Below are positions 1-10,759 of a stretch of DNA of 11,779 nt, piece after piece. The notes under the pieces are model-generated. The model saw only the letters and a list, made by a program, of their open reading frames with translations, had not been told where the DNA came from and did not search any database. Position 1 is the first letter of the stretch. Each line of letters opens with the position of its first letter. Origin of the DNA: Candidatus Jordarchaeales archaeon (GTDB lineage: Archaea; Asgardarchaeota; Jordiarchaeia; Jordiarchaeales; Freyrarchaeaceae); assembly GCA_038858525.1 (NCBI GenBank), contig JAWCFL010000027.1, forward strand, positions 11,608-23,386, read 5' to 3'. Position numbers and translations under genes: made by a program.

Positions 1-393
1 CACGTTGAGCATAATGTTATCTCTTATCACGTTGGCTTTGGGCGCCGACAGCTGCTTGATAGCTTCGAGAGCCTTCTCAGAGCGGTACTCCTGAGCAAAG
101 CCCAGAAAGGCGTTTATCAGAATTATAGCCACTATTACTATGCCATCCAGAAAGTGGCCGGTGGCAAGTGAAATAATAACGGCGACCGACAAAATATAGT
201 TTAGGGCATTGTTAAACTGTCTAAAAAGTAGTCTGGGAACTGACAGCCTCCTTAACTCGCCTATCGCGTTTGGACCATATATCTCCAACCTTCTAGAGGC
301 CTCATCGCTACTCAACCCTTGAGGACTAGTTCCTAGGACGCTCATGACTTCTTCTACACTCATAGCGTGCCAGCTTCTACCATCAGCCATCAT
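1..393 (-). CDS. Cation-transporting P-type ATPase, type II (Ca2+/PacL-SERCA-like), N-terminal 131 aa; runs off the left edge
   Basis: Not in the ORF track; translated by hand from ATG at 393: MMADGRSWHAMSVEEVMSVLGTSPQGLSSDEASRRLEIYGPNAI...LFRQFNNAL...IVAIILINAFLGFAQEYRSEKALEAIKQLSAPKANVIRD. This is the Cation_ATPase_N signature (WH..S.EE, GLS..EA..RL..YGPN) followed by TM1-TM2 and QEYR.EKALEA. GGTGG SD just upstream. The DKTGT motif lies outside the window, so the ion is inferred. Confidence 0.93.
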   Translation of the reverse strand, partial: MMADGRSWHAMSVEEVMSVLGTSPQGLSSDEASRRLEIYGPNAIGELRRLSVPRLLFRQFNNALNYILSVAVIISLATGHFLDGIVIVAIILINAFLGFAQEYRSEKALEAIKQLSAPKANVIRDNIMLNV

Positions 394-2390: not shown

Positions 2391-2434
2391 TAAATTTGCA
2401 GACGTTGACGGAGTGTCTAGTTAAGGGGACCGAC

Positions 2435-3259
2435 ATGTGTGACATTTTGGCGATGTGCTTCAGCAAGCCTGTCACGGCTTCCTTCTCCCTCAGAGGATTT
2501 AAGATGAAAGGAAAGTTTAACTACCACGGGTGGGGCGTCGCATGGTACCAAGATGGGGCTGCCCAAATCGTTAAAGAGCCGGTCACGGCGCTGAGGAGCA
2601 GGCTCTTCGACAACTTACTTAAAAACATGGAGGCACGCTCCGAAATTTTCATCGCGCACGTCCGCCGGGCATCAGACGTCAAGCTGGCACCCCCATCAAT
2701 CGTGAATACTCACCCATTCTGGAGGGAGCTGAAGGGTAAGACGTACGTCTTCGCGCATAACGGTTCCCTCAGGCAAGACGTTAAAAGGATGGAGTTCAAA
2801 AGGAAGTTTCCACTGAGTAATATTAAACCTCTCGGTGAGACAGGGTCTGAATATATCTTCTGCCACCTCCTCGCGTGCATAGAGAAAGAAGTAGAGGTGT
2901 GGGATGAAGCTGGGTTCTCGTGGCTTGCAGACAAGCTAGCCGAGATTAACGAGTACATTTTTCTCAACTGCGTCATGAGTGACGGAGACCACCTTTTCCT
3001 TTACCATGACGCTGAAGCTTACAATGGAATGGCGTTAACTCTTAGGAGAGCGCCATTCCCGGTTATACGCTTAATGGACGACGAGGAGGAGGTTATTCTG
3101 CAGGAAGAAAAGGGAAGGGACTTGCAGGGCGTTGTGGCAACGACGCTTTCCCTAAGATACTCGGACACACCAGTATACCTGACCAACGAGAAGTGGACGC
3201 ACGTTGAACCGGGAAAACTCCTTGTGTTTAGAAAGGGGCGAGAGATTTATCAGCGGTGA
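2435..3259 (+). CDS. Class II (Ntn) glutamine amidotransferase, YafJ/EgtC-like (GATase_4)
   Basis: True start is ATG 2435 (MCDILAM), which places the nucleophilic Cys at position 2. Motifs GWGVAWY, FIAHVRRAS, NTHPF, FAHNG and GETGSE match the YafJ-type family. The track's TTG start at 2396 would mask the N-terminal Cys. Confidence 0.88.
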   Translation: MCDILAMCFSKPVTASFSLRGFKMKGKFNYHGWGVAWYQDGAAQIVKEPVTALRSRLFDNLLKNMEARSEIFIAHVRRASDVKLAPPSIVNTHPFWRELKGKTYVFAHNGSLRQDVKRMEFKRKFPLSNIKPLGETGSEYIFCHLLACIEKEVEVWDEAGFSWLADKLAEINEYIFLNCVMSDGDHLFLYHDAEAYNGMALTLRRAPFPVIRLMDDEEEVILQEEKGRDLQGVVATTLSLRYSDTPVYLTNEKWTHVEPGKLLVFRKGREIYQR

Positions 3260-3414: not shown

Positions 3415-3666
3415 ATGATTCATGGTGTTGAAGTTAAAAAAGTGGATGAGCAAGGGAGAATAGTTCTCCCGGCGGATTGGAGGCAGAAGGAGCTTGGAGA
3501 GAGTAGAGAGGTTATAGTGATAAAGGGTGAAGGGGTTCTGAAGATAATCCCTAAGAAGAGAGTGGACCTCACCAGGTTCTTTGACAGCATAGACTTGGGA
3601 GTGAACGTCGGCGACTGGGACGGGTTCGAGGGGAGGTTTTACCGTGACGAGGTTTCTCGACGCTAA
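3415..3666 (+). CDS. vapB: AbrB/MazE/SpoVT-family antitoxin (VapB-type)
   Basis: VKKVDEQGRIVLPADWRQKELGESREVIVIKGEGVLKIIP is the swapped-hairpin AbrB signature, with an acidic C-terminal tail. GGTGA SD at 3404-3408. Overlaps the downstream PIN gene by 23 nt. Confidence 0.9.
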   Translation: MIHGVEVKKVDEQGRIVLPADWRQKELGESREVIVIKGEGVLKIIPKKRVDLTRFFDSIDLGVNVGDWDGFEGRFYRDEVSRR

Positions 3667-4090
3667 CGTCTTCATATACGCCTATTATAAGCCGAAAGGG
3701 GCGCTAAGTGAAGAGCAAAAAAGGATGAAGGAGCAAGCTAAGAAAATAATAAGGCGGGTTAATGAAGGAGAAGAAGTCGTGACCACCGTGGTTCACCTAT
3801 CTGAGGTTGCGAACATACTTAAGAGGGGACTTCCTACTAGGGACCTTCACGCGCTTCTACTTAGCCTGTGCTCAATGGACAACGTCAAAGTAGTAGGCGT
3901 CACAAAGGAGGATTACATGGAAGCTATCGACATGATGAAGGACATCGGACTGGACCCAAATGACTGTTTGGCTGTAAAAATCATGCGGATGGAAAGAATA
4001 GAGGAAATATACTCGTTCGATAAAGCGTTCGACAATGTTGAAGGCGTAAGGAGAGCCACGCTGCAGTTGGAGAACAGCAGCGATACTTGA
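3644..4090 (+). CDS. vapC: PIN-domain ribonuclease toxin (VapC)
   Basis: FLDANVFIY (D6), HLSEV (E54), DPNDCL (D107) and YSFDKAFD (D126/D130) give a complete PIN acidic tetrad. GTG start with GGGAGGT SD, translationally coupled to the antitoxin. Confidence 0.92.
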   Translation: MTRFLDANVFIYAYYKPKGALSEEQKRMKEQAKKIIRRVNEGEEVVTTVVHLSEVANILKRGLPTRDLHALLLSLCSMDNVKVVGVTKEDYMEAIDMMKDIGLDPNDCLAVKIMRMERIEEIYSFDKAFDNVEGVRRATLQLENSSDT

Positions 4091-4583: not shown

Positions 4584-5015
4584 TTAACACTTTGACAGAA
4601 GTTTACTTCCCCTCTCCTTCTCCTCCACTTCCTTTACTGCTTCAGCTACTTTCAGGAAAATCTCCTTAACCTTTATCTTGTCTCCAGTTTTCATCGCTTC
4701 AAGGAAAACTGGCCCCAGCTCTCCTAAACCAAACCTTGAAAAAACGTCTGTGAACAACAAACTTAGAAAGGAATCTGCCACCGAGCTTTTCAGTCTTAAT
4801 AAAGCTAGCTCGTAAAACTCCTTCGGATTCTCAAGGAGTCTTCCAAGAAAATCTTCATGATCTTCACACCCGACTTCACTCATGATACGATCAACTAATC
4901 CAATGGTTGGAACATTACCCCTTAGTTCGCTCCCACGCTTACTCATACGCCTAGCAACAACCCTAATTGCTTCCTCTAAATCCACTTCTAAAACCCCAGA
5001 AAAACATTTGCTCAC
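4584..5015 (-). CDS. Small helical archaeal protein, possibly DUF3227/NitrOD5-like
   Basis: 143-aa ORF with protein-like composition. LLENPKEFYELALLRLKSSVADSFLSLLFTDVFSRFGL resembles the recalled 'L.EDP..F..AL..LFG..A' pattern of DUF3227/NitrOD5. An alternative start is GTG 4985, preceded by GGGGT. Confidence 0.55.
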   Translation of the reverse strand: MSKCFSGVLEVDLEEAIRVVARRMSKRGSELRGNVPTIGLVDRIMSEVGCEDHEDFLGRLLENPKEFYELALLRLKSSVADSFLSLLFTDVFSRFGLGELGPVFLEAMKTGDKIKVKEIFLKVAEAVKEVEEKERGSKLLSKC

Positions 5016-5151
5016 TTCTTTTTAAAATCTTTGCTTTTGGCATCATACAAACTTTCACTAAAAGACCACTAAGCTTATTTCCTTCTTTGAGGCATCACTC
5101 TCCGTAACACTTCACTTTTGTCGCATCCCCCTTCTTCTCCCAATTTAGGGA

Positions 5152-5164
5152 GAAAAAAATAAAA
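5152..5164 (-). terminator. Oligo-T tract, putative archaeal terminator of the zinc-finger gene
   Basis: Minus strand reads TTTTATTTTTTTC, about 60 nt downstream of the stop at 5225. Confidence 0.4.
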
Positions 5165-5224
5165 TGCTGTTCCTTTCGGTGGAGACTGTTTGGGTGTTTG
5201 AAGAGAGCTTACTTTTTTTGGGAA

Positions 5225-6268
5225 TCACAATGTGATTATTGTGTAGTTTTTTCCGCCTCCTGCTGCGAATACCTGTATTCTTTTCCCCTTTGCTGTTTCT
5301 ACGTCCAGCCTCAATATGGGAAATATGTATATCGGGTAGAGTGGGGTTTCACCTGTCTTGTCGGCTTTCTTTTCGAGATCGGCGAATATCTTCTTTGCTC
5401 TGCCAGCCTTACTATCCACGTCTTTATTGTAGAACCCAAGCATAGCTTCCAGGTCGTTTTTGTTAAGCTGCTCGTGATTGTTTATTTTTACTGATTCTAG
5501 CTGACTAACCTTCGCCTCCAGCATCTCGGATAGGACGTCGTCAACCTCTGGCTTAGAGTATATGAGGTACAACTTCTTCCCCGAGACTGGCGGGGGTGAA
5601 ACGCTGTATGTGAATATAACACCAGCGCCCTTGCATTTTTTGCAGGGAAATTTGCCGTCGCCTCCGCATTCGTTACAAACAAGCTTAGCAAGCCCACCAC
5701 ACTTACCGCACACTACTTTTCCGGAGCCGAAACACGTGGGGCACTGAACTTTCATTTCCCTCTCCGTCTCCTCTCCGTCTGAAACAACGCTCAGCGTTAA
5801 CGCAACCTCCTTGGCTCCTTCACACTCGTCGCAGGAAATCTCTCCGCTCTCACCGCACTCGTTACATGGCAACGTCCCTTTCCCACCACACTTGTCACAT
5901 TCGAGGTAACCTGTGCCAGCACATTCAGAGCACTCAACTTTCTCCAGCGAGCCGAACATGGGAATTCTGGAGTCAAGCTTGAGTTCGGGTGGAACCTTGC
6001 CCTTGGGAAACTCATAAAACTTAACCTTCAATATTCCTTCATAGTTACTTTCCTTTCTCTCAGCTTCCACGCTCCCCGTTTCAATCTTAGACGCAAAGAA
6101 GACGGCGATTTTCCTGTCGACCTCCTTAACAAACTCCGCAGCAGACACGCTTGACTTGTCAAAAGGCATGTCCTTCCGAGCAAACAACTCTTCAAGTTCG
6201 TCATCCCTCATCCCGTTAACCCATCTCGAAAAAACCTCATCAGGTGACGGCGGCTTAAGAAACGACAT
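5225..6268 (-). CDS. Protein with eight DnaJ-type CxxCxGxG zinc-binding motifs and no J domain; SSUH2-like
   Basis: Motifs start at residues 113, 124, 135, 146, 176, 187, 198 and 209 (CSECAGTG, CDKCGGKG, CNECGESG, CDECEGAK, CPTCFGSG, CGKCGGLA, CNECGGDG, CKKCKGAG). No HPD motif, no G/F region. GGAGGGG SD upstream of ATG 6268. Confidence 0.85.
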   Translation of the reverse strand: MSFLKPPSPDEVFSRWVNGMRDDELEELFARKDMPFDKSSVSAAEFVKEVDRKIAVFFASKIETGSVEAERKESNYEGILKVKFYEFPKGKVPPELKLDSRIPMFGSLEKVECSECAGTGYLECDKCGGKGTLPCNECGESGEISCDECEGAKEVALTLSVVSDGEETEREMKVQCPTCFGSGKVVCGKCGGLAKLVCNECGGDGKFPCKKCKGAGVIFTYSVSPPPVSGKKLYLIYSKPEVDDVLSEMLEAKVSQLESVKINNHEQLNKNDLEAMLGFYNKDVDSKAGRAKKIFADLEKKADKTGETPLYPIYIFPILRLDVETAKGKRIQVFAAGGGKNYTIITL

Positions 6269-6438
6269 AACAAACCCCTCCGCTCATTATAATGTAAAAT
6301 ACCCTTTTAAGACTTCCTTCCCTAAAAGGAATACAGGATAAAGGCGCAGCATAAAGCTTAGTGAAACAGTTACCCAAAAGATAAAAAATGGGCGAATGAC
6401 CTGCCGTTTGATTTTGATTTCACTATTTTCCTAGAATC

Positions 6439-6601: not shown

Positions 6602-7033
6602 GTGGAGCGTACCAGAGGAGTTACTTTTCTCAGCTTAGTTTTCTGTGCTTTAGGCGTTTTTCTAGCGGCCATATCCATTTGGAGTTTAAGGGACTTGGTT
6701 AGCTGGGGTCTTCTCCAGTTTCTTGACACAGCTATACTCGCAATGTTTCTTGTGGCGGGATTAACATGTAGTGTTGCAGCCATAGGCCTTTTCCAGCTCA
6801 GAAACTGGGGGAGACGATTCATCATGGTTTTTTCTCTCTTTATGATAATTGCTGGCTTGGCTGGGATAATTCTTTCTCCTGATCAGTTCTCTTCGAGAAG
6901 CGCATTCTTCACCTTGCTCCTCTACAGGCTACCCCACTTCAACATTACTGGAGGAGTATTAGCTATTATCCTTGGGTTAACGGCGATCTGGTACCTTTCA
7001 AAGCCGAGAGTAAAGTTTTTGTTCTGGTGGTAA
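6602..7033 (+). CDS. Hypothetical integral membrane protein (about 4 TM helices)
   Basis: GTG start with AGGAGG SD at 6588-6593. Four hydrophobic segments; R.RGVT.L start, GL..L.NWGR loop and WYL.KP.VK end are typical of a widespread uncharacterised small membrane family. Confidence 0.8.
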   Translation: MERTRGVTFLSLVFCALGVFLAAISIWSLRDLVSWGLLQFLDTAILAMFLVAGLTCSVAAIGLFQLRNWGRRFIMVFSLFMIIAGLAGIILSPDQFSSRSAFFTLLLYRLPHFNITGGVLAIILGLTAIWYLSKPRVKFLFWW

Positions 7034-7208: not shown

Positions 7209-8402
7209 ATGAGAGACACTGAAGAAATGGTTGATGAGGTTAGGAATGGAGTTGCGATCGACGGGTGGCGGATTGTTTATGTAGGCATGCGTTACGCTTT
7301 CACTGCCCGGGAGCTCTTCATGAGGGTGGCCAAGGAATTGACGGGGTTTTTAGGGTCATCCGTTAGGAGTGTCATTTTACAGTTCACGTCCCTCTCGGGT
7401 TTAACCGAGATGGAGCGCATGCTGAAACAGGGTAATTTATTTTTTGAGGAGGCACTTGAAAGATACGCTAATTTTCTCACAGCTTCAGGATGGGGAGTTA
7501 CCGAGGTCGTTGAGTCAGACTTCAGCAAGCACGAGTTCGTGTTCAGGGTGCACAACTCTGGGTTTGCCACGTGGCTGAGGGACAACTTAGGCGACGTCGA
7601 AAAAGTCTTCCCATTTTACGACTGCGGCTTGCTAGGTTACCGCTTAGTGGGGGCCACTACAGCCATCTTAGAGGAAGCAGGCATAAAGGAGCCCTTATCC
7701 TACGAGGAAATAGAATGCTTGGCTAAAGGCGGACGCTACTGTGAGTTCCACGTAAAGAGGGACAATGACGCTGCCCCAATACGCAGGCTAGAAGAAGAGA
7801 TCCCAAGGCCAATGTTCAGCTATGACGAAGTGAAGGCTGCGTCGTGTGGCGTTAACCTGTCCAAAAGAAACCCGAGAAGCGTGATCGGCCATTTCCTTAA
7901 TGCCTTAGATGTGAAAGAGAGGGGGGTGCTTAAAGTGGGGAGGGACTGCGTCTTCTTTGTGCCGTCACTTCTTCACTCCATTGCCTACTGGATGCTACCT
8001 CTCGAAAAATTCGGCGACTTTATACATAATATTTACAGGAGGGCGATCAACGAGTATGGTAGAACCCTCGCAAAGGAAGGAGAAAGGTATGGCAGTATGG
8101 GTGTGACTGCGTTCTTCCTGAATTCGACTTCAGCTATGGGGTGGGGCGGAATGGAAATAGAGGAGTTCAGTGACTCAAAGGTCTCCTTCAAGATATACCA
8201 TTCACTTCTCGGCGAGGACGTTAAGGCGTACTCATCATGGAAAGGCTTAAGGCTTCAGCCATCATGCCACCTGATAGGCTACGTTGTTGAAGGCATACTA
8301 AATTACTTCGCAGAGCAGGAGGGGGATCGATTCACGGCGAAAGAGGAGAAATGCGTAGCAGCAGGTGACCCCCTATGCAAGTTCGTGATAGAAAAAGAGT
8401 GA
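7209..8402 (+). CDS. Tandem (2x) XylR_N-like/V4R domain protein, stand-alone small-molecule sensor
   Basis: Two repeats, each with an N-terminal hairpin, a GWG motif and a C..E-x2-C-x7-C set: C139/E167/C170/C178 (EEIECLAKGGRYCEF) and C353/E379/C382/C390 (EEKCVAAGDPLCKF). No AAA+, HTH or kinase domain. Confidence 0.88.
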   Translation: MRDTEEMVDEVRNGVAIDGWRIVYVGMRYAFTARELFMRVAKELTGFLGSSVRSVILQFTSLSGLTEMERMLKQGNLFFEEALERYANFLTASGWGVTEVVESDFSKHEFVFRVHNSGFATWLRDNLGDVEKVFPFYDCGLLGYRLVGATTAILEEAGIKEPLSYEEIECLAKGGRYCEFHVKRDNDAAPIRRLEEEIPRPMFSYDEVKAASCGVNLSKRNPRSVIGHFLNALDVKERGVLKVGRDCVFFVPSLLHSIAYWMLPLEKFGDFIHNIYRRAINEYGRTLAKEGERYGSMGVTAFFLNSTSAMGWGGMEIEEFSDSKVSFKIYHSLLGEDVKAYSSWKGLRLQPSCHLIGYVVEGILNYFAEQEGDRFTAKEEKCVAAGDPLCKFVIEKE

Positions 8403-8425: not shown

Positions 8426-9595
8426 CTAAAACATATATTTTGCGGCCCTTAGTATGGCCACCTCCATGTTCCCTATGAGCTCAGACTTTGTAGGCTTCCC
8501 GGAAGCCACCATTAAAACCTCGTTTAGGATCCTCCTCCCCGCATCCTCTATAGTCTCTTCCCCCTCGATTATTGAACTGACATCCACGTCTATGTCGCAA
8601 CGCATCTTGTTGAAGGTCTCCTTGTTAGCTGTAACTTTCACCACCGGCGAGACAGGGCTTCCAGCGGGAGTTCCTCTACCAGTGGTAAAAATGATCACTT
8701 GGCATCCCGCCGCCGCTAAGCCTGTTATTGATTCAATGTCAAGGCCAGGCTCATTCATAAGGTAAAGGCCTTTCCCCTTCGGCTTTTCGCCATATCCAAG
8801 TACGTCCTGCACAGGCCTGCTTCCAGCCTTGCATATGGTGCCAAGTGACTTCTCCTCTATAGTTGTTATCCCGCCGGCAATGTTGCCAGGAGTAGGCTGG
8901 GCGCCACGGAAATCTATGCCCAGCTCCATCGCACGTTTAACGTAGTACTCGACGGCGTCATAGCACTTCTTGGCCACCTCGCTATTAACTGCACGCGAAG
9001 CCAGTATGTGTTCCGCTCCTATCCATTCAGATGACTCTGGAAGTATCACGGTTCCGCCAGCGTCAACAACAATGTCTGCTACAACCCCCACGGCGGGGTT
9101 CGAAGCTAAACCAGATGTTGCATCTGAACCGCCACACTCCGTTCCGAGCACAAGCTCATTCAAGCCACAAGGCTCCCTCTCCACATCCAAAGCGTCGCCA
9201 GCCATCTCAACCAGCAGCTCGCACCCCCTCTGCACAGCCTTCAAGCTTCCTCCCTCATCCTGAATGTTTATCCACTCCACTGGCTTCCCGGTCTTAGCTA
9301 TCTCGCCAGCAATCAAGCTGGCCGTGACGTTCTCACACCCTAACCCGACGACCAAGACACCGGCAACGTTAGGGTTTGCACCTAAGCCCGAAAGCGTCCC
9401 CCAAACTCTTAGAAAGTCTTCTCCTATGTGGCCGCAACCGTAAGGATGCGTGATTGACACGGCGTTCTTAACCTGCTCAGCTATTCTCCTAGCTACATGA
9501 TTGGCGCATGACACTGCCGAGACGACGAGCAGATGATTTCTTACGCCGACGCTTCCATCCTTCCTCCTATACCCCATAAATTCAAGCCCACTCAA
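8426..9595 (-). CDS. UxaA/GarD-family dehydratase (altronate/galactarate dehydratase-like), large/beta subunit
   Basis: Motifs GYRRKDGSVGVRNH, HPYGCG, GLGCEN, ECGGSDATSG, QPTPGNIAGGITTIEEKSLG and FTTGRGTPAG. Likely start is TTG 9595, overlapping the alpha-subunit TGA, after a GGAGG-rich SD; the track start is 9625. Confidence 0.93.
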   Translation of the reverse strand: MSGLEFMGYRRKDGSVGVRNHLLVVSAVSCANHVARRIAEQVKNAVSITHPYGCGHIGEDFLRVWGTLSGLGANPNVAGVLVVGLGCENVTASLIAGEIAKTGKPVEWINIQDEGGSLKAVQRGCELLVEMAGDALDVEREPCGLNELVLGTECGGSDATSGLASNPAVGVVADIVVDAGGTVILPESSEWIGAEHILASRAVNSEVAKKCYDAVEYYVKRAMELGIDFRGAQPTPGNIAGGITTIEEKSLGTICKAGSRPVQDVLGYGEKPKGKGLYLMNEPGLDIESITGLAAAGCQVIIFTTGRGTPAGSPVSPVVKVTANKETFNKMRCDIDVDVSSIIEGEETIEDAGRRILNEVLMVASGKPTKSELIGNMEVAILRAAKYMF

Positions 9596-9894
9596 CGCTC
9601 CCCCGCCTCCTTCATCGCCTTCCACACAAAGGAGCTCACTACGTTGTGAACGTGAACATGCTCCCCTGCCTTTATCGGCTTAGTCGCAACACCTATAACC
9701 TCCCCGTATTTCACCACGTTCCCTCCAACATCTATGTCTCTGAGGGCAAACTTGTGGCCGAATGGTATGTCGTTTTTAATCTCAACCTCCAACTCTCGAC
9801 CTCCAATTCTGACATTAACCTTTGTGCCTGAGCGTATTTCTGAAACTGCAGTGGCAACATTGTCTTTCTCACTCATAACTACAAACTTCACCAT
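9592..9894 (-). CDS. UxaA-family dehydratase small/alpha subunit (SAF domain)
   Basis: DNVATA...IPFGHKFALRDIDVGGNVVKYGEVIGVATKPIKAGEHVHVHNV is the UxaA N-terminal SAF domain. ATG 9894 has a GGTGA SD 5 nt upstream; the track start is 9912. Confidence 0.93.
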   Translation of the reverse strand: MVKFVVMSEKDNVATAVSEIRSGTKVNVRIGGRELEVEIKNDIPFGHKFALRDIDVGGNVVKYGEVIGVATKPIKAGEHVHVHNVVSSFVWKAMKEAGER

Positions 9895-9961
9895 AATGTT
9901 CACCAAAAACAAAAAGAGGGAGAAATAGCAGTAAAAGTTTTCCTAGGCGACGAGTTTTATC

Positions 9962-10759
9962 CTATTTAAGGAAGTCTATCACTAGTTTCACGAACCTCTC
10001 CCTCTCTTGAGTTATCAACCCATGTCCCGATCCTTCGAAGACTACCAGCTTAGCGTTCGGTATCTTTTCCGCTATTAACCTTCCATTTTCCGGCGGGACA
10101 AGTATGTCCTTTCCTCCCGAAACAACCAGAGTCGGCTTGTTGATGCTTCCAAGCCTATCGTAAGCGTTAAACTTCAGTATAGCGTTGATCTGCCTCATGT
10201 AGGCGTCGGCCGGAATAACGAACTTCGAGATCCTTTCAACAGTCGCCTCAGCAACCTCCGGGTGCGCCTTAATGAACTCCTCAGGGTAAAGTACTTTTAA
10301 CGTCTCCCTCGCTATTTGCTCGTCAGTTAACTTGCTTCTATCCATGGTCAATAGAGCCATCGCCTCAGGCTTAGGTGGAACAGTAACTTGCCCTCCAGGA
10401 GCAGTAACGCACAGAACGAGTTTCTCAACTCTGTCAGGGTAGTTTAACGCGACCTCCTGAGCTATCATGCCACCCATCGAAACTCCTAGAACATGCGCTT
10501 TACTGATACCCAAGTAATCCATCAGGCCAACGGTATCATCAGCGAACATCCCCATGGTATACTCTACTCCAGGCTTATCGGTTCTCCCAGCACCCCTATT
10601 GTCGAAAACCACCACCTTAAAATGCTTCGAGAACTCATCTATAATGAACGGGTCCCACCAGTACACGTTGGCTCCAAGCCCCATTATCATAACCAGCGGG
10701 AACCCCTCACCGTGGACCTCATAGTACATATTTAAGCCTCTAACCTTCGCGTAAGGCAT
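9962..10759 (-). CDS. Alpha/beta-fold hydrolase (3-oxoadipate enol-lactonase/esterase-like)
   Basis: FDNRGAGRTD motif, nucleophile elbow GVSMGG (S94), acid D218 (GGKDILVP) and H246 (GSGHGL) form an intact triad. GGAGGTGGAG SD. Confidence 0.93.
   Translation of the reverse strand: MPYAKVRGLNMYYEVHGEGFPLVMIMGLGANVYWWDPFIIDEFSKHFKVVVFDNRGAGRTDKPGVEYTMGMFADDTVGLMDYLGISKAHVLGVSMGGMIAQEVALNYPDRVEKLVLCVTAPGGQVTVPPKPEAMALLTMDRSKLTDEQIARETLKVLYPEEFIKAHPEVAEATVERISKFVIPADAYMRQINAILKFNAYDRLGSINKPTLVVSGGKDILVPPENGRLIAEKIPNAKLVVFEGSGHGLITQERERFVKLVIDFLK

Follow-up and report, generated by a model that had tools for sequence, protein, structure and literature searches.

The characterised proteins whose cysteine arrays come closest to the one described here are DnaJ and BSD2. 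In the DnaJ cysteine-rich domain (PF00684; 1exk) four CxxCxGxG knuckles join antiparallel segments through Zn(Cys)4 sites, the whole being inserted in a beta-rich domain. BSD2 (PF25436; 6ekb) is a J-less CxxC zinc-finger assembly chaperone of plastids that acts independently of Hsp70, and both it and the DnaJ zinc-finger domain bind non-native or assembling proteins. Also J-less is SSUH2 (C3orf32, fls485; the homologue of C. elegans ssu-2), which bears a CxxC array of two equal arms between an N-terminal helix-plus-hairpin part and a C-terminal hairpin-helix-hairpin part. SSUH2 is conserved in animals and has been linked to dentin dysplasia; we know of no molecular function and no solved structure for it, nor of a Pfam model that covers its flanking domains. 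Here we describe a gene for a 347-aa protein of comparable plan, with an array of eight CxxC motifs, on a stretch of 11,779 nucleotides (the window; contig JAWCFL010000027.1, positions 11,608 to 23,386) from the genome of a Candidatus Jordarchaeales archaeon.

The protein is a J-less zinc-finger protein of DnaJ type with a variant structure, and probably a remote relative of SSUH2. Our overall reading, to which we give roughly even odds (a probability of about 0.5), is that this is an Asgard gene whose product is a divergent member of an SSUH2-like superfamily, as distinct from a demonstrated SSUH2 orthologue, and would act as a protein-binding zinc rod independently of Hsp70.

An Asgard gene with an eight-motif CxxC array

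The gene occupies a single open frame on the minus strand at positions 5225-6268 of the window, which translates to 347 aa. Its parts, in coordinates of the window, are as follows.

5225..6268, minus strand: complete coding sequence (CDS) of the 347-aa zinc-finger protein, in a single frame with the stop codon at 5225-5227; full-length homologues at E 1e-40 to 1e-230
5933..6268, minus strand: N-terminal part, residues 1-112, predicted as three helices, a beta-hairpin and a strand leading into the array; AlphaFold predicted local distance difference test (pLDDT) scores of 78-94; conserved only within the Asgard family
5810..5932, minus strand: arm 1 of the zinc array, residues 113-153, CxxC motifs 1-4 with an 11-residue period; cysteines invariant in close homologues
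5744..5809, minus strand: beta-hairpin insert at the tip of the array, residues 154-175; strands modelled at 154-163 and 166-175, pLDDT ~90; present throughout the family
5621..5743, minus strand: arm 2 of the zinc array, residues 176-216, CxxC motifs 5-8 with an 11-residue period; sub-threshold matches to BSD2_CRD and DnaJ_CXXCXGXG, and a match to 1exk
5228..5620, minus strand: C-terminal part, residues 217-347, predicted as a beta-hairpin, helices, a long helix and three terminal strands; modelled to form a cystatin-like alpha+beta core with the N-terminal part
5237..5464, minus strand: SSUH2-like C-terminal segment, residues 269-344, a long helix plus beta-hairpin; from Cys-masked iterative hidden Markov model (HMM) searches, hhalign E 1.7e-4
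6275..6298, minus strand: putative expression signals read from the sequence, i.e. a TATA-like stretch rich in A/T (6285-6298) and, 7-13 nt ahead of the ATG, GGAGGGG (6275-6281)

Sequence comparison indicates that this open reading frame (ORF) is a genuine, well-conserved single-copy gene of a hot-spring Jordarchaeales (Asgard) archaeon, and that its product is soluble and acidic, with an isoelectric point (pI) of 5.3 and without a hydrophobic stretch long enough for a membrane span. Identity to its full-length homologues runs from 99% down to 27%; the nearest named homologue (84% identity) belongs to Candidatus Jordarchaeales and further named ones come from Helarchaeota, bearing out the Asgard host that a preceding reading of the sequence alone (the sequence-only reading) had suspected, and the DNA is present in hot-spring metagenomes from several studies. 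A profile (A2) from an alignment of 41 members of this unnamed family (annotated 'CR-type domain-containing protein'), which we call the Asgard short family, matches the 347-aa protein at E 5e-116 over profile positions 3-349, so covering the N-terminal part, the array and the C-terminal part; by this measure the protein is a full member of the family. The same profile detects the family in 182 of 400 genomes of the phylum (E 1e-70 to 1e-125), in many families, and 43 of 90 high-quality Asgard genomes contain it, whilst HMMs of its N and C domains are specific to that family.

All 16 cysteines of the protein lie within eight CxxC motifs, which start at residues 113, 124, 135 and 146 and at residues 176, 187, 198 and 209, i.e. 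in two blocks of four that each keep an exact 11-residue period, just as the sequence-only reading had described them. That reading counted eight CxxCxGxG motifs; eight CxxC motifs are indeed present, but only five have the strict form, motif 3 being CxxCGxxG and motifs 4 and 6 ending in K and A, respectively. The 16 cysteines are invariant across 11 close homologues, and all eight motifs are retained in 34 of the 41 wider family members, with some members keeping only motifs 1, 4, 5 and 8; judged on these alignments, the conservation of the eight-motif array in the family is far beyond chance. Outside the cysteines and glycines of the array, family alignments reveal only a few conserved prolines, glycines and hydrophobic positions, and no catalytic-looking residue set. 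Between the two blocks, the insert that had been described as beta-hairpin-like (residues 155-175) is modelled as a beta-hairpin with pLDDT ~90, and the flanks, earlier put at about 110 and 130 aa, measure 112 and 131 aa.

Arm lengths were compared across ~270 proteins by dividing the array of each at its largest gap and tallying the motifs per arm. The commonest counts in the Asgard short family are 4+4 (42 proteins), 2+2 (3) and 3+3 (2); SSUH2 has 3+3 in 42 proteins, and the commonest counts in other proteins are 4+4 (50), 5+5 (18), 3+3 (8), 7+7 (7), 6+6 (5), 8+8 (4) and 10+10 (3). Equal arms with odd numbers of motifs are incompatible with arms each made up of self-contained, DnaJ-like units of two zinc ions; these counts argue for zinc pairing across the arms, and lend support to the nested motif pairing that had been suggested from the single sequence. 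Motifs 2 and 7 degenerate jointly (to CxC and HxxC, respectively) in two family members, in what may be one event, and this joint loss agrees with pairing across the arms. We infer that the two arms are most likely antiparallel, with motifs nested in the pairs 1-8, 2-7, 3-6 and 4-5 and hence four Zn(Cys)4 sites. The symmetric, often odd arm counts would then express a structural rule, in which zinc is bound across the arms and the length of the rod is set by the number of motifs.

Amongst characterised proteins, the DnaJ cysteine-rich domain gives the best sequence match in the PDB (1exk, E 0.0097), and in a Foldseek search with the predicted structure DnaJA2 is the top match, DnaJA2 chains being the only significant PDB matches and having poor template-modelling scores (TM-scores). 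However, the match to PF00684 (18.1 bits) falls short of the cut-off of 32.7, there are eight motifs where DnaJ has four, and the protein is without a J domain, HPD, G/F region or DnaJ C-terminal domains in a host without Hsp70; the sequence-only reading had already remarked on the missing J domain, and we find neither an HPD tripeptide nor a Pfam J-domain match. The best Pfam match is BSD2_CRD, at 19.1 bits (cut-off 27) and over residues 196-217 only, and BSD2 itself has ~80 aa, four motifs and no flanking core, as against 347 aa here. From these comparisons the protein is neither a DnaJ nor of the BSD2 type. Sequence searches of Pfam, NCBIfam and the PDB gave sub-threshold matches only, all within the Cys array.

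Two other candidates were rejected. A match of the family profile to the plant protein EMB2737 (8xku) is confined to the Cys array. Residues 13-76 (~6041-6232) matched the Vps28 N-terminal domain of the endosomal sorting complex ESCRT-I in four PDB entries (E 0.009 to 1.3); Asgard genomes encode ESCRT parts, but this match is probably spurious or compositional, the model having strands where Vps28 is helical.

Relationship to SSUH2 and to bacterial proteins

The best AlphaFold model of the 347-aa protein, from an 11-sequence alignment, has a mean pLDDT of 84.8 and a predicted TM-score (pTM) of 0.72. Three helices, a long hairpin and strands lead in this model to the array with its tip hairpin, and are followed by a hairpin, helices that include a long one at residues 282-300, and three terminal strands. 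A model of marmot SSUH2 (34-row alignment; pLDDT 81.2; residues 1-58 disordered) has the same order of elements, i.e. helices, hairpin, strands, Cys array, hairpin, helix, strand, long helix, hairpin and strands, with the array inserted at the same point. Both models also give weak matches to many of the same cystatin-like PDB chains (6i1m, 4it7, 6uio, 4r80, 5boi, 7fik, 5ts4, 7cd8, 4exr, 2lqv, 6w3w and 4xmn). As modelled, the SSUH2-like architecture claimed by the sequence-only reading is supported for element order, array insertion point and cystatin-like matches, although the TM-score of the whole model to SSUH2 is only 0.36; it is not supported for the number of motifs, vertebrate SSUH2 having six (3+3, plus a C-terminal CCGC) and not 4+4.

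There are further differences between the two. The tip of the array is a structured beta-hairpin in the Asgard protein and a basic linker in SSUH2; the Asgard N domain is not recognisably of SSUH2 type; the C-terminal CCGC tail and the long disordered N-terminal extension are both missing from the Asgard protein; and the latter is acidic whereas SSUH2 is basic. The GAK at the turn, which had been cited as a parallel with SSUH2, is limited to the Jordarchaeales clade, other family members having G-x-G, and is probably a coincidence.

In the ESM Atlas, clusters matching the Asgard model are 95-96% archaeal, mostly Promethearchaeota (TM-scores 0.48 and 0.44). Its neighbours also include the chordate SSUH2 cluster (TM-score 0.36 for the whole model, 200 residues aligned) and several bacterial clusters of SSUH2-type proteins (0.30-0.37). 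These bacterial clusters are also the non-eukaryotic Atlas neighbours of the SSUH2 model, with which they score higher (Bacteroidota 0.58 over 270 aligned residues; Chloroflexota 0.52), and Asgard clusters are absent from the 30 nearest neighbours of that model.

Homologue searches with the 347-aa protein and its family profile returned no named SSUH2. SSUH2 sequences were instead obtained with a 48-residue query, 100% identical to a database SSUH2, and were of amniotes only, 22 being aligned (A3); the two SSUH2 strings that the sequence-only reading had quoted, FQVPHSSLVKEC and IELIPLTEVHYWYQGKTYVYYIYG, are genuine, both occurring in database SSUH2 proteins. A full-length comparison of the family and SSUH2 profiles gave E 5.9e-14 (98.2% probability); the alignment keeps its register from the pre-finger strand to the last strands, and its score is dominated by cysteines. 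Against amniote SSUH2 the C domain alone gave E 0.039 over 31 columns, at the very strands that had been paired from the sequence, and both flanks joined with the Cys array deleted gave E 0.062; neither value is significant.

Iterative HMM searches were performed on ~220 collected proteins with the Cys arrays masked with X. Seeded with the SSUH2 C domain, the search recruited non-Asgard proteins in rounds 1-5 and the Asgard short family in rounds 6-9, and converged with all SSUH2 kept; the Asgard proteins were always recruited at their C-terminal 75 residues (269-344 in the 347-aa protein), and a reversed-database control gave zero matches for all four seeds. A broad SSUH2-type C profile, built without members of the Asgard short family though including P0082 of a longer Asgard family (see below), matched the Asgard C domain in a Cys-masked hhalign comparison at E 1.7e-4 (50% probability, 71 columns), the reversed control giving 0.15 and 20 column shuffles at least 0.3. 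These comparisons support a relationship between the C-terminal segment of the 347-aa protein and SSUH2-type proteins at the level of a superfamily, not of a family.

The N domain behaves otherwise. An SSUH2 N-domain seed drew in 29 non-Asgard proteins and reached convergence with no Asgard protein among them, and an Asgard N-domain seed recruited only its own family from the same set. A broad SSUH2-type N profile (A4), for which SSUH2 was combined with related bacterial proteins, matched none of the 400 Asgard genomes at E 1e-3, with a positive-control bacterial genome at E 3e-29, and matched nothing meaningful in the PDB. The similar order of secondary-structure elements in the models may nevertheless leave room for remote homology of the N domains despite these null sequence tests. 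The sequence-only reading had allowed that likeness to SSUH2 might be confined to the Cys repeats: this is not so for the C domain, which matches with the cysteines masked, whilst the N domain is without significant similarity.

Named sources of clusters with both SSUH2-type domains are Paludibacteraceae, WOR-3 (annotated as a protein kinase), Marinimicrobia, Ktedonobacterales and a metagenome-assembled genome of Rikenellaceae. These bacterial proteins resemble the Asgard one in having a core, a two-armed CxxC ladder (often 4+4) and a core, with a related C-terminal segment, and differ from it in their SSUH2-type N domain, in their fusion domains, and in being rare and patchy where the stand-alone Asgard form is common; amongst 251 Bacteroidota genomes the SSUH2-type N domain was found in one, the seed genome itself. 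They are ~550-1400 aa long, with the module fused to Ser/Thr kinase, TPR, WD40, PEGA, TM2 or TerB domains, and their fusion partners suggest a role of the SSUH2-type module in signalling or stress proteins. Individual bacterial members (P0105, P0128, P0158, P0117, P0061 and P0177) carry an N-terminal Ser/Thr kinase with C-terminal TPR/WD40/PD40 repeats, PEGA with TPR, TM2, or TerB. One bacterial-type member, P0017, lies in a tight co-directional cluster of five genes with overlapping stops and starts, an arrangement typical of prokaryotes.

In a longer Asgard family (~370-690 aa; P0075, P0082, P0087, P0088, P0155 and P0328, some of them named as being from Odinarchaeota and 'Asgardarchaeia') the module is joined to a C-terminal extension that is uncharacterised. 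In profile comparisons this family bridges the short family and the SSUH2-type proteins, its cluster of 600-690 aa making the best link to the short one. Its N flank scores ~E 2e-3 with each of the two N-domain types, a weak hint, at the level of profiles, that all N domains of the superfamily may be related. Taken with the models, the profile comparisons make it probable that a single superfamily plan, 'core, zinc ladder, core', is common to eukaryotic SSUH2, the Asgard short and longer families and sporadic bacterial proteins.

A tree of the C domain was computed from 72 columns of 50 proteins; it holds three groups, is unrooted, and samples SSUH2 from amniotes only. A starred branch (99/94) has the Asgard short family on one side and all else on the other, namely SSUH2, the proteins of bacteria and a single long Asgard protein; SSUH2 forms a clade with one marine-metagenome protein within an unresolved comb of bacterial lineages. 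Constraining SSUH2 and the Asgard family together costs 2.2 log-likelihood units and is not rejected (approximately unbiased (AU) test, p 0.4). Because a three-group unrooted tree cannot decide ancestry, we state ranks of similarity rather than descent. On that scale the outcome that the sequence-only reading had named as adverse to its proposal, i.e. bacterial homologues alongside the eukaryotic proteins with the archaeal ones apart, is largely what is seen, although a sister relationship of SSUH2 and the Asgard family is not rejected.

The marine-metagenome protein that groups with SSUH2 (P0198; 461 aa, L001, contig of 3128 bp) matches the SSUH2 N domain at 8.7e-10 and the C domain at 1.7e-12. 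It is the only gene called on its contig, with ~1.5 kb beside it empty, and may be a protist SSUH2.

That sequence-only proposal was that the protein is an archaeal orthologue of SSUH2 and hence a eukaryotic signature protein (ESP). In its fullest form, the 347-aa protein would truly be the Asgard orthologue of SSUH2, or would descend from the archaeal ancestor of SSUH2, its N domain having diverged past recognition and the bacterial copies having been transferred. We consider this unlikely, even though the two models are alike in overall architecture and element order, the C-domain link holds, the constrained tree is scarcely worse, the longer Asgard family scores with both types of N domain, and the Asgard family is common where the SSUH2-type module is rare in bacteria. 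The N and C domains of SSUH2 match bacterial proteins strongly and early (rounds 1-5), and Asgard proteins late for C and never for N; the SSUH2-type N profile is missing from all 400 Asgard genomes with its positive control working; SSUH2's nearest non-eukaryotic structural neighbours are bacterial; the starred branch sets the Asgard family apart; and SSUH2 is sampled from amniotes only. With bacterial members lying closer to SSUH2, orthology between SSUH2 and the 347-aa protein is not demonstrated, and on present evidence the protein should not be listed as an ESP. A broader form, in which the short and longer Asgard families and SSUH2 all descend vertically from one archaeal 'zinc-ladder' protein at eukaryogenesis and the bacterial copies are later transfers, we likewise hold to be improbable; were it true, the Asgard proteins would represent the prokaryotic prototype, and a heat-stable, tractable model, of the disease-linked SSUH2, and the module at large would be a zinc ladder that can vary in length (2 to 10 zinc sites) and serves as a molecular spacer or a client-binding rod.

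Similarly doubtful is the opposite explanation, that the protein has no ancestry in common with SSUH2 beyond DnaJ-type Cys repeats, a mobile CxxC array having been inserted independently in an unrelated alpha+beta core with convergent or coincidental flanks. The non-significant match to amniote SSUH2 once the Cys array is deleted, the N domains unlinked by sequence and the TM-score of 0.36 between the models would all fit such an origin. The Cys-masked C-domain match, however, is better by three orders of magnitude than its reversed and shuffled controls and falls at the homologous position, and in every group iterative searching ends on this C-terminal segment, the reversed database giving zero matches. 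Element order is moreover identical along the whole chain, with the same insertion point for the array, and the same bacterial Atlas clusters neighbour both models.

On the superfamily reading, which we prefer, the whole plan of SSUH2, i.e. a core split by a two-armed zinc ladder, would recur in prokaryotes, in sporadic bacterial signalling proteins and in a divergent stand-alone Asgard form. Literature searches on SSUH2 with archaea or prokaryotes gave nothing relevant, and no paper linking SSUH2 to prokaryotes was found; such functional proposals as exist for SSUH2 derive only from its sequence or its localisation. The superfamily so defined would make small, thermostable, single-domain versions available for structural and biochemical work.

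Proposed mechanism and its alternatives

Neither Hsp70 (PF00012) nor a J domain (PF00226) was matched in the 92.7%-complete source genome, control genomes being positive (PF00012 in 12 of 14). Because the genome is without Hsp70 and without a J domain, the protein is expected to act without an Hsp70 system and not as an Hsp70 co-chaperone. In the mechanism that we propose, with modest confidence, the N- and C-terminal parts would fold together into a single cystatin-like alpha+beta core, in which the array of eight CxxC knuckles is inserted with its two four-motif arms antiparallel. Pairs of motifs across the arms would provide four Zn(Cys)4 sites and so a rigid two-stranded rod, capped by the beta-hairpin. 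The protein would most likely act alone as a zinc-stabilised protein-binding module, as a holdase or a factor in assembly, much as the DnaJ zinc-finger domain or BSD2 does, with the rod presenting the binding surface and the core either anchoring the rod or mediating assembly. We propose a protein-binding rod because the nearest characterised Cys arrays, those of the DnaJ zinc finger and BSD2, bind proteins; zinc stoichiometry, pairing and client binding are proposals.

Several observations weigh against the combined reading of a superfamily member acting as a protein-binding rod. The other four of the five AlphaFold models reach only ~58 pLDDT, and pLDDT falls below 50 at motifs 3 and 6-7, so that the geometry of the rod is not well modelled. 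With respect to kinship, the N domain alone compares with amniote SSUH2 at E 0.4 (cross-controls of the N- and C-domain comparisons 0.12-0.19) and with the broad A4 profile at E 0.05 over 17 columns (shuffles at least 0.09), whilst the C-domain link appears partly transitive, arising by PSI-BLAST-like recruitment. With respect to function, no neighbouring gene is conserved across Asgard orders in 14 genomes, and the context gives no functional hint; those conserved locally, i.e. a DEAD helicase with DUF5814, a CLC channel, an energy-coupling factor (ECF) riboflavin S component, a pyridoxal-phosphate (PLP) enzyme and a Ras-like GTPase, make no coherent system. The charge of the rod is not conserved either, being acidic in one clade and basic in most others, which is a poor fit with one conserved client or ligand.

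An active role for the cysteines seems to us quite unlikely. The array would in that case be a redox-sensitive zinc switch that releases zinc on oxidation, as in Hsp33, or a thiol-disulfide oxidoreductase or DnaJ-like disulfide isomerase, and not a passive rod. Whilst its sixteen cysteines do stand in CxxC pairs, and the DnaJ cysteine-rich domain has thiol-disulfide oxidoreductase activity in vitro, a G-rich zinc-knuckle pattern so fully conserved, at a strict spacing of 11 residues, speaks for structural Zn(Cys)4 sites. Nor is it evident why this Asgard host should need a switch against oxidative stress, as it lives in hot springs, to judge by metagenome matches, and is probably anaerobic like its group in general. 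In favour of such a role, a chaperone or oxidoreductase function has been proposed from sequence for human SSUH2/fls485 (PMC2838759).

Very unlikely is a function in binding nucleic acids, as a zinc-ribbon protein whose rod would touch DNA or RNA. In its favour, strong basicity (pI ~9) is the rule in the family, for whole proteins and Cys arrays alike, the SSUH2 array of vertebrates is Arg/Lys-rich, and SSUH2 has been reported as nuclear (PMC7818184). Against it, the acidity of the Jordarchaeales clade (pI 5.3 for the whole protein and 4.8 for the array here) disfavours such binding for the 347-aa protein, no known nucleic-acid-binding family was matched in Pfam, NCBIfam or the PDB, and the closest characterised arrays, as said, bind proteins.

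Expression, copy number and neighbouring genes

A contig of 743 nt from a metatranscriptome library, derived from a closely related strain, differs from the CDS at eight positions; all eight are third codon positions, which clearly points to purifying selection on the CDS, and the three indels in the RNA-library contig of this gene all fall just outside it. Sediment metatranscriptome contigs cover 5106-5849 and 6072-6214 of the window, and the neighbouring regions 4725-4862 and 6636-6935 are matched by separate contigs. These RNA-library contigs are a hint that the zinc-finger gene is expressed, with partial coverage and possible carry-over of DNA.

Searched with the A2 profile, the Jordarchaeales source genome contains one full copy of the family; the sole other match is a short Cys-repeat stretch on contig C32 with two stop codons inside. 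Another Asgard genome has two full-length copies in tandem, ~90 nt apart (G127:C5:1338591-1340780, minus strand). Acidity sets the Jordarchaeales members (pI 5.2-5.8 for the protein and ~4.8 for the Cys array) apart from nearly all other family members, which are basic, at pI ~9; this is a marked switch of charge within one family.

On the upstream side of the zinc-finger gene, across an ORF for a small membrane protein (6602-7033), lies a gene reading away from it (7209-8402, plus strand), whose 397-aa product matches the V4R domain twice and has conserved Cys pairs close to either match; this arrangement was not seen in the sampled neighbourhoods of other Asgard orders. Further along, positions 8426-9912 (minus strand) resemble a split altronate/galactarate dehydratase, with a 106-aa SAF-domain ORF (9592-9912) that overlaps by 34 nt a 399-aa ORF (8426-9625) carrying the GD_AH second and C-terminal domains. 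On the other side, an 83-aa AbrB/MazE-type antitoxin ORF (3415-3666, plus strand) overlaps by 23 nt a 148-aa PIN-domain ORF (3644-4090, plus strand), together forming a VapBC-like toxin-antitoxin pair. The remaining neighbours are ordinary: the N terminus of a P-type cation ATPase (1-393, minus strand), a class-II glutamine amidotransferase (GATase_4; 2396-3259, plus strand) and an alpha/beta hydrolase (9962-10759, minus strand).

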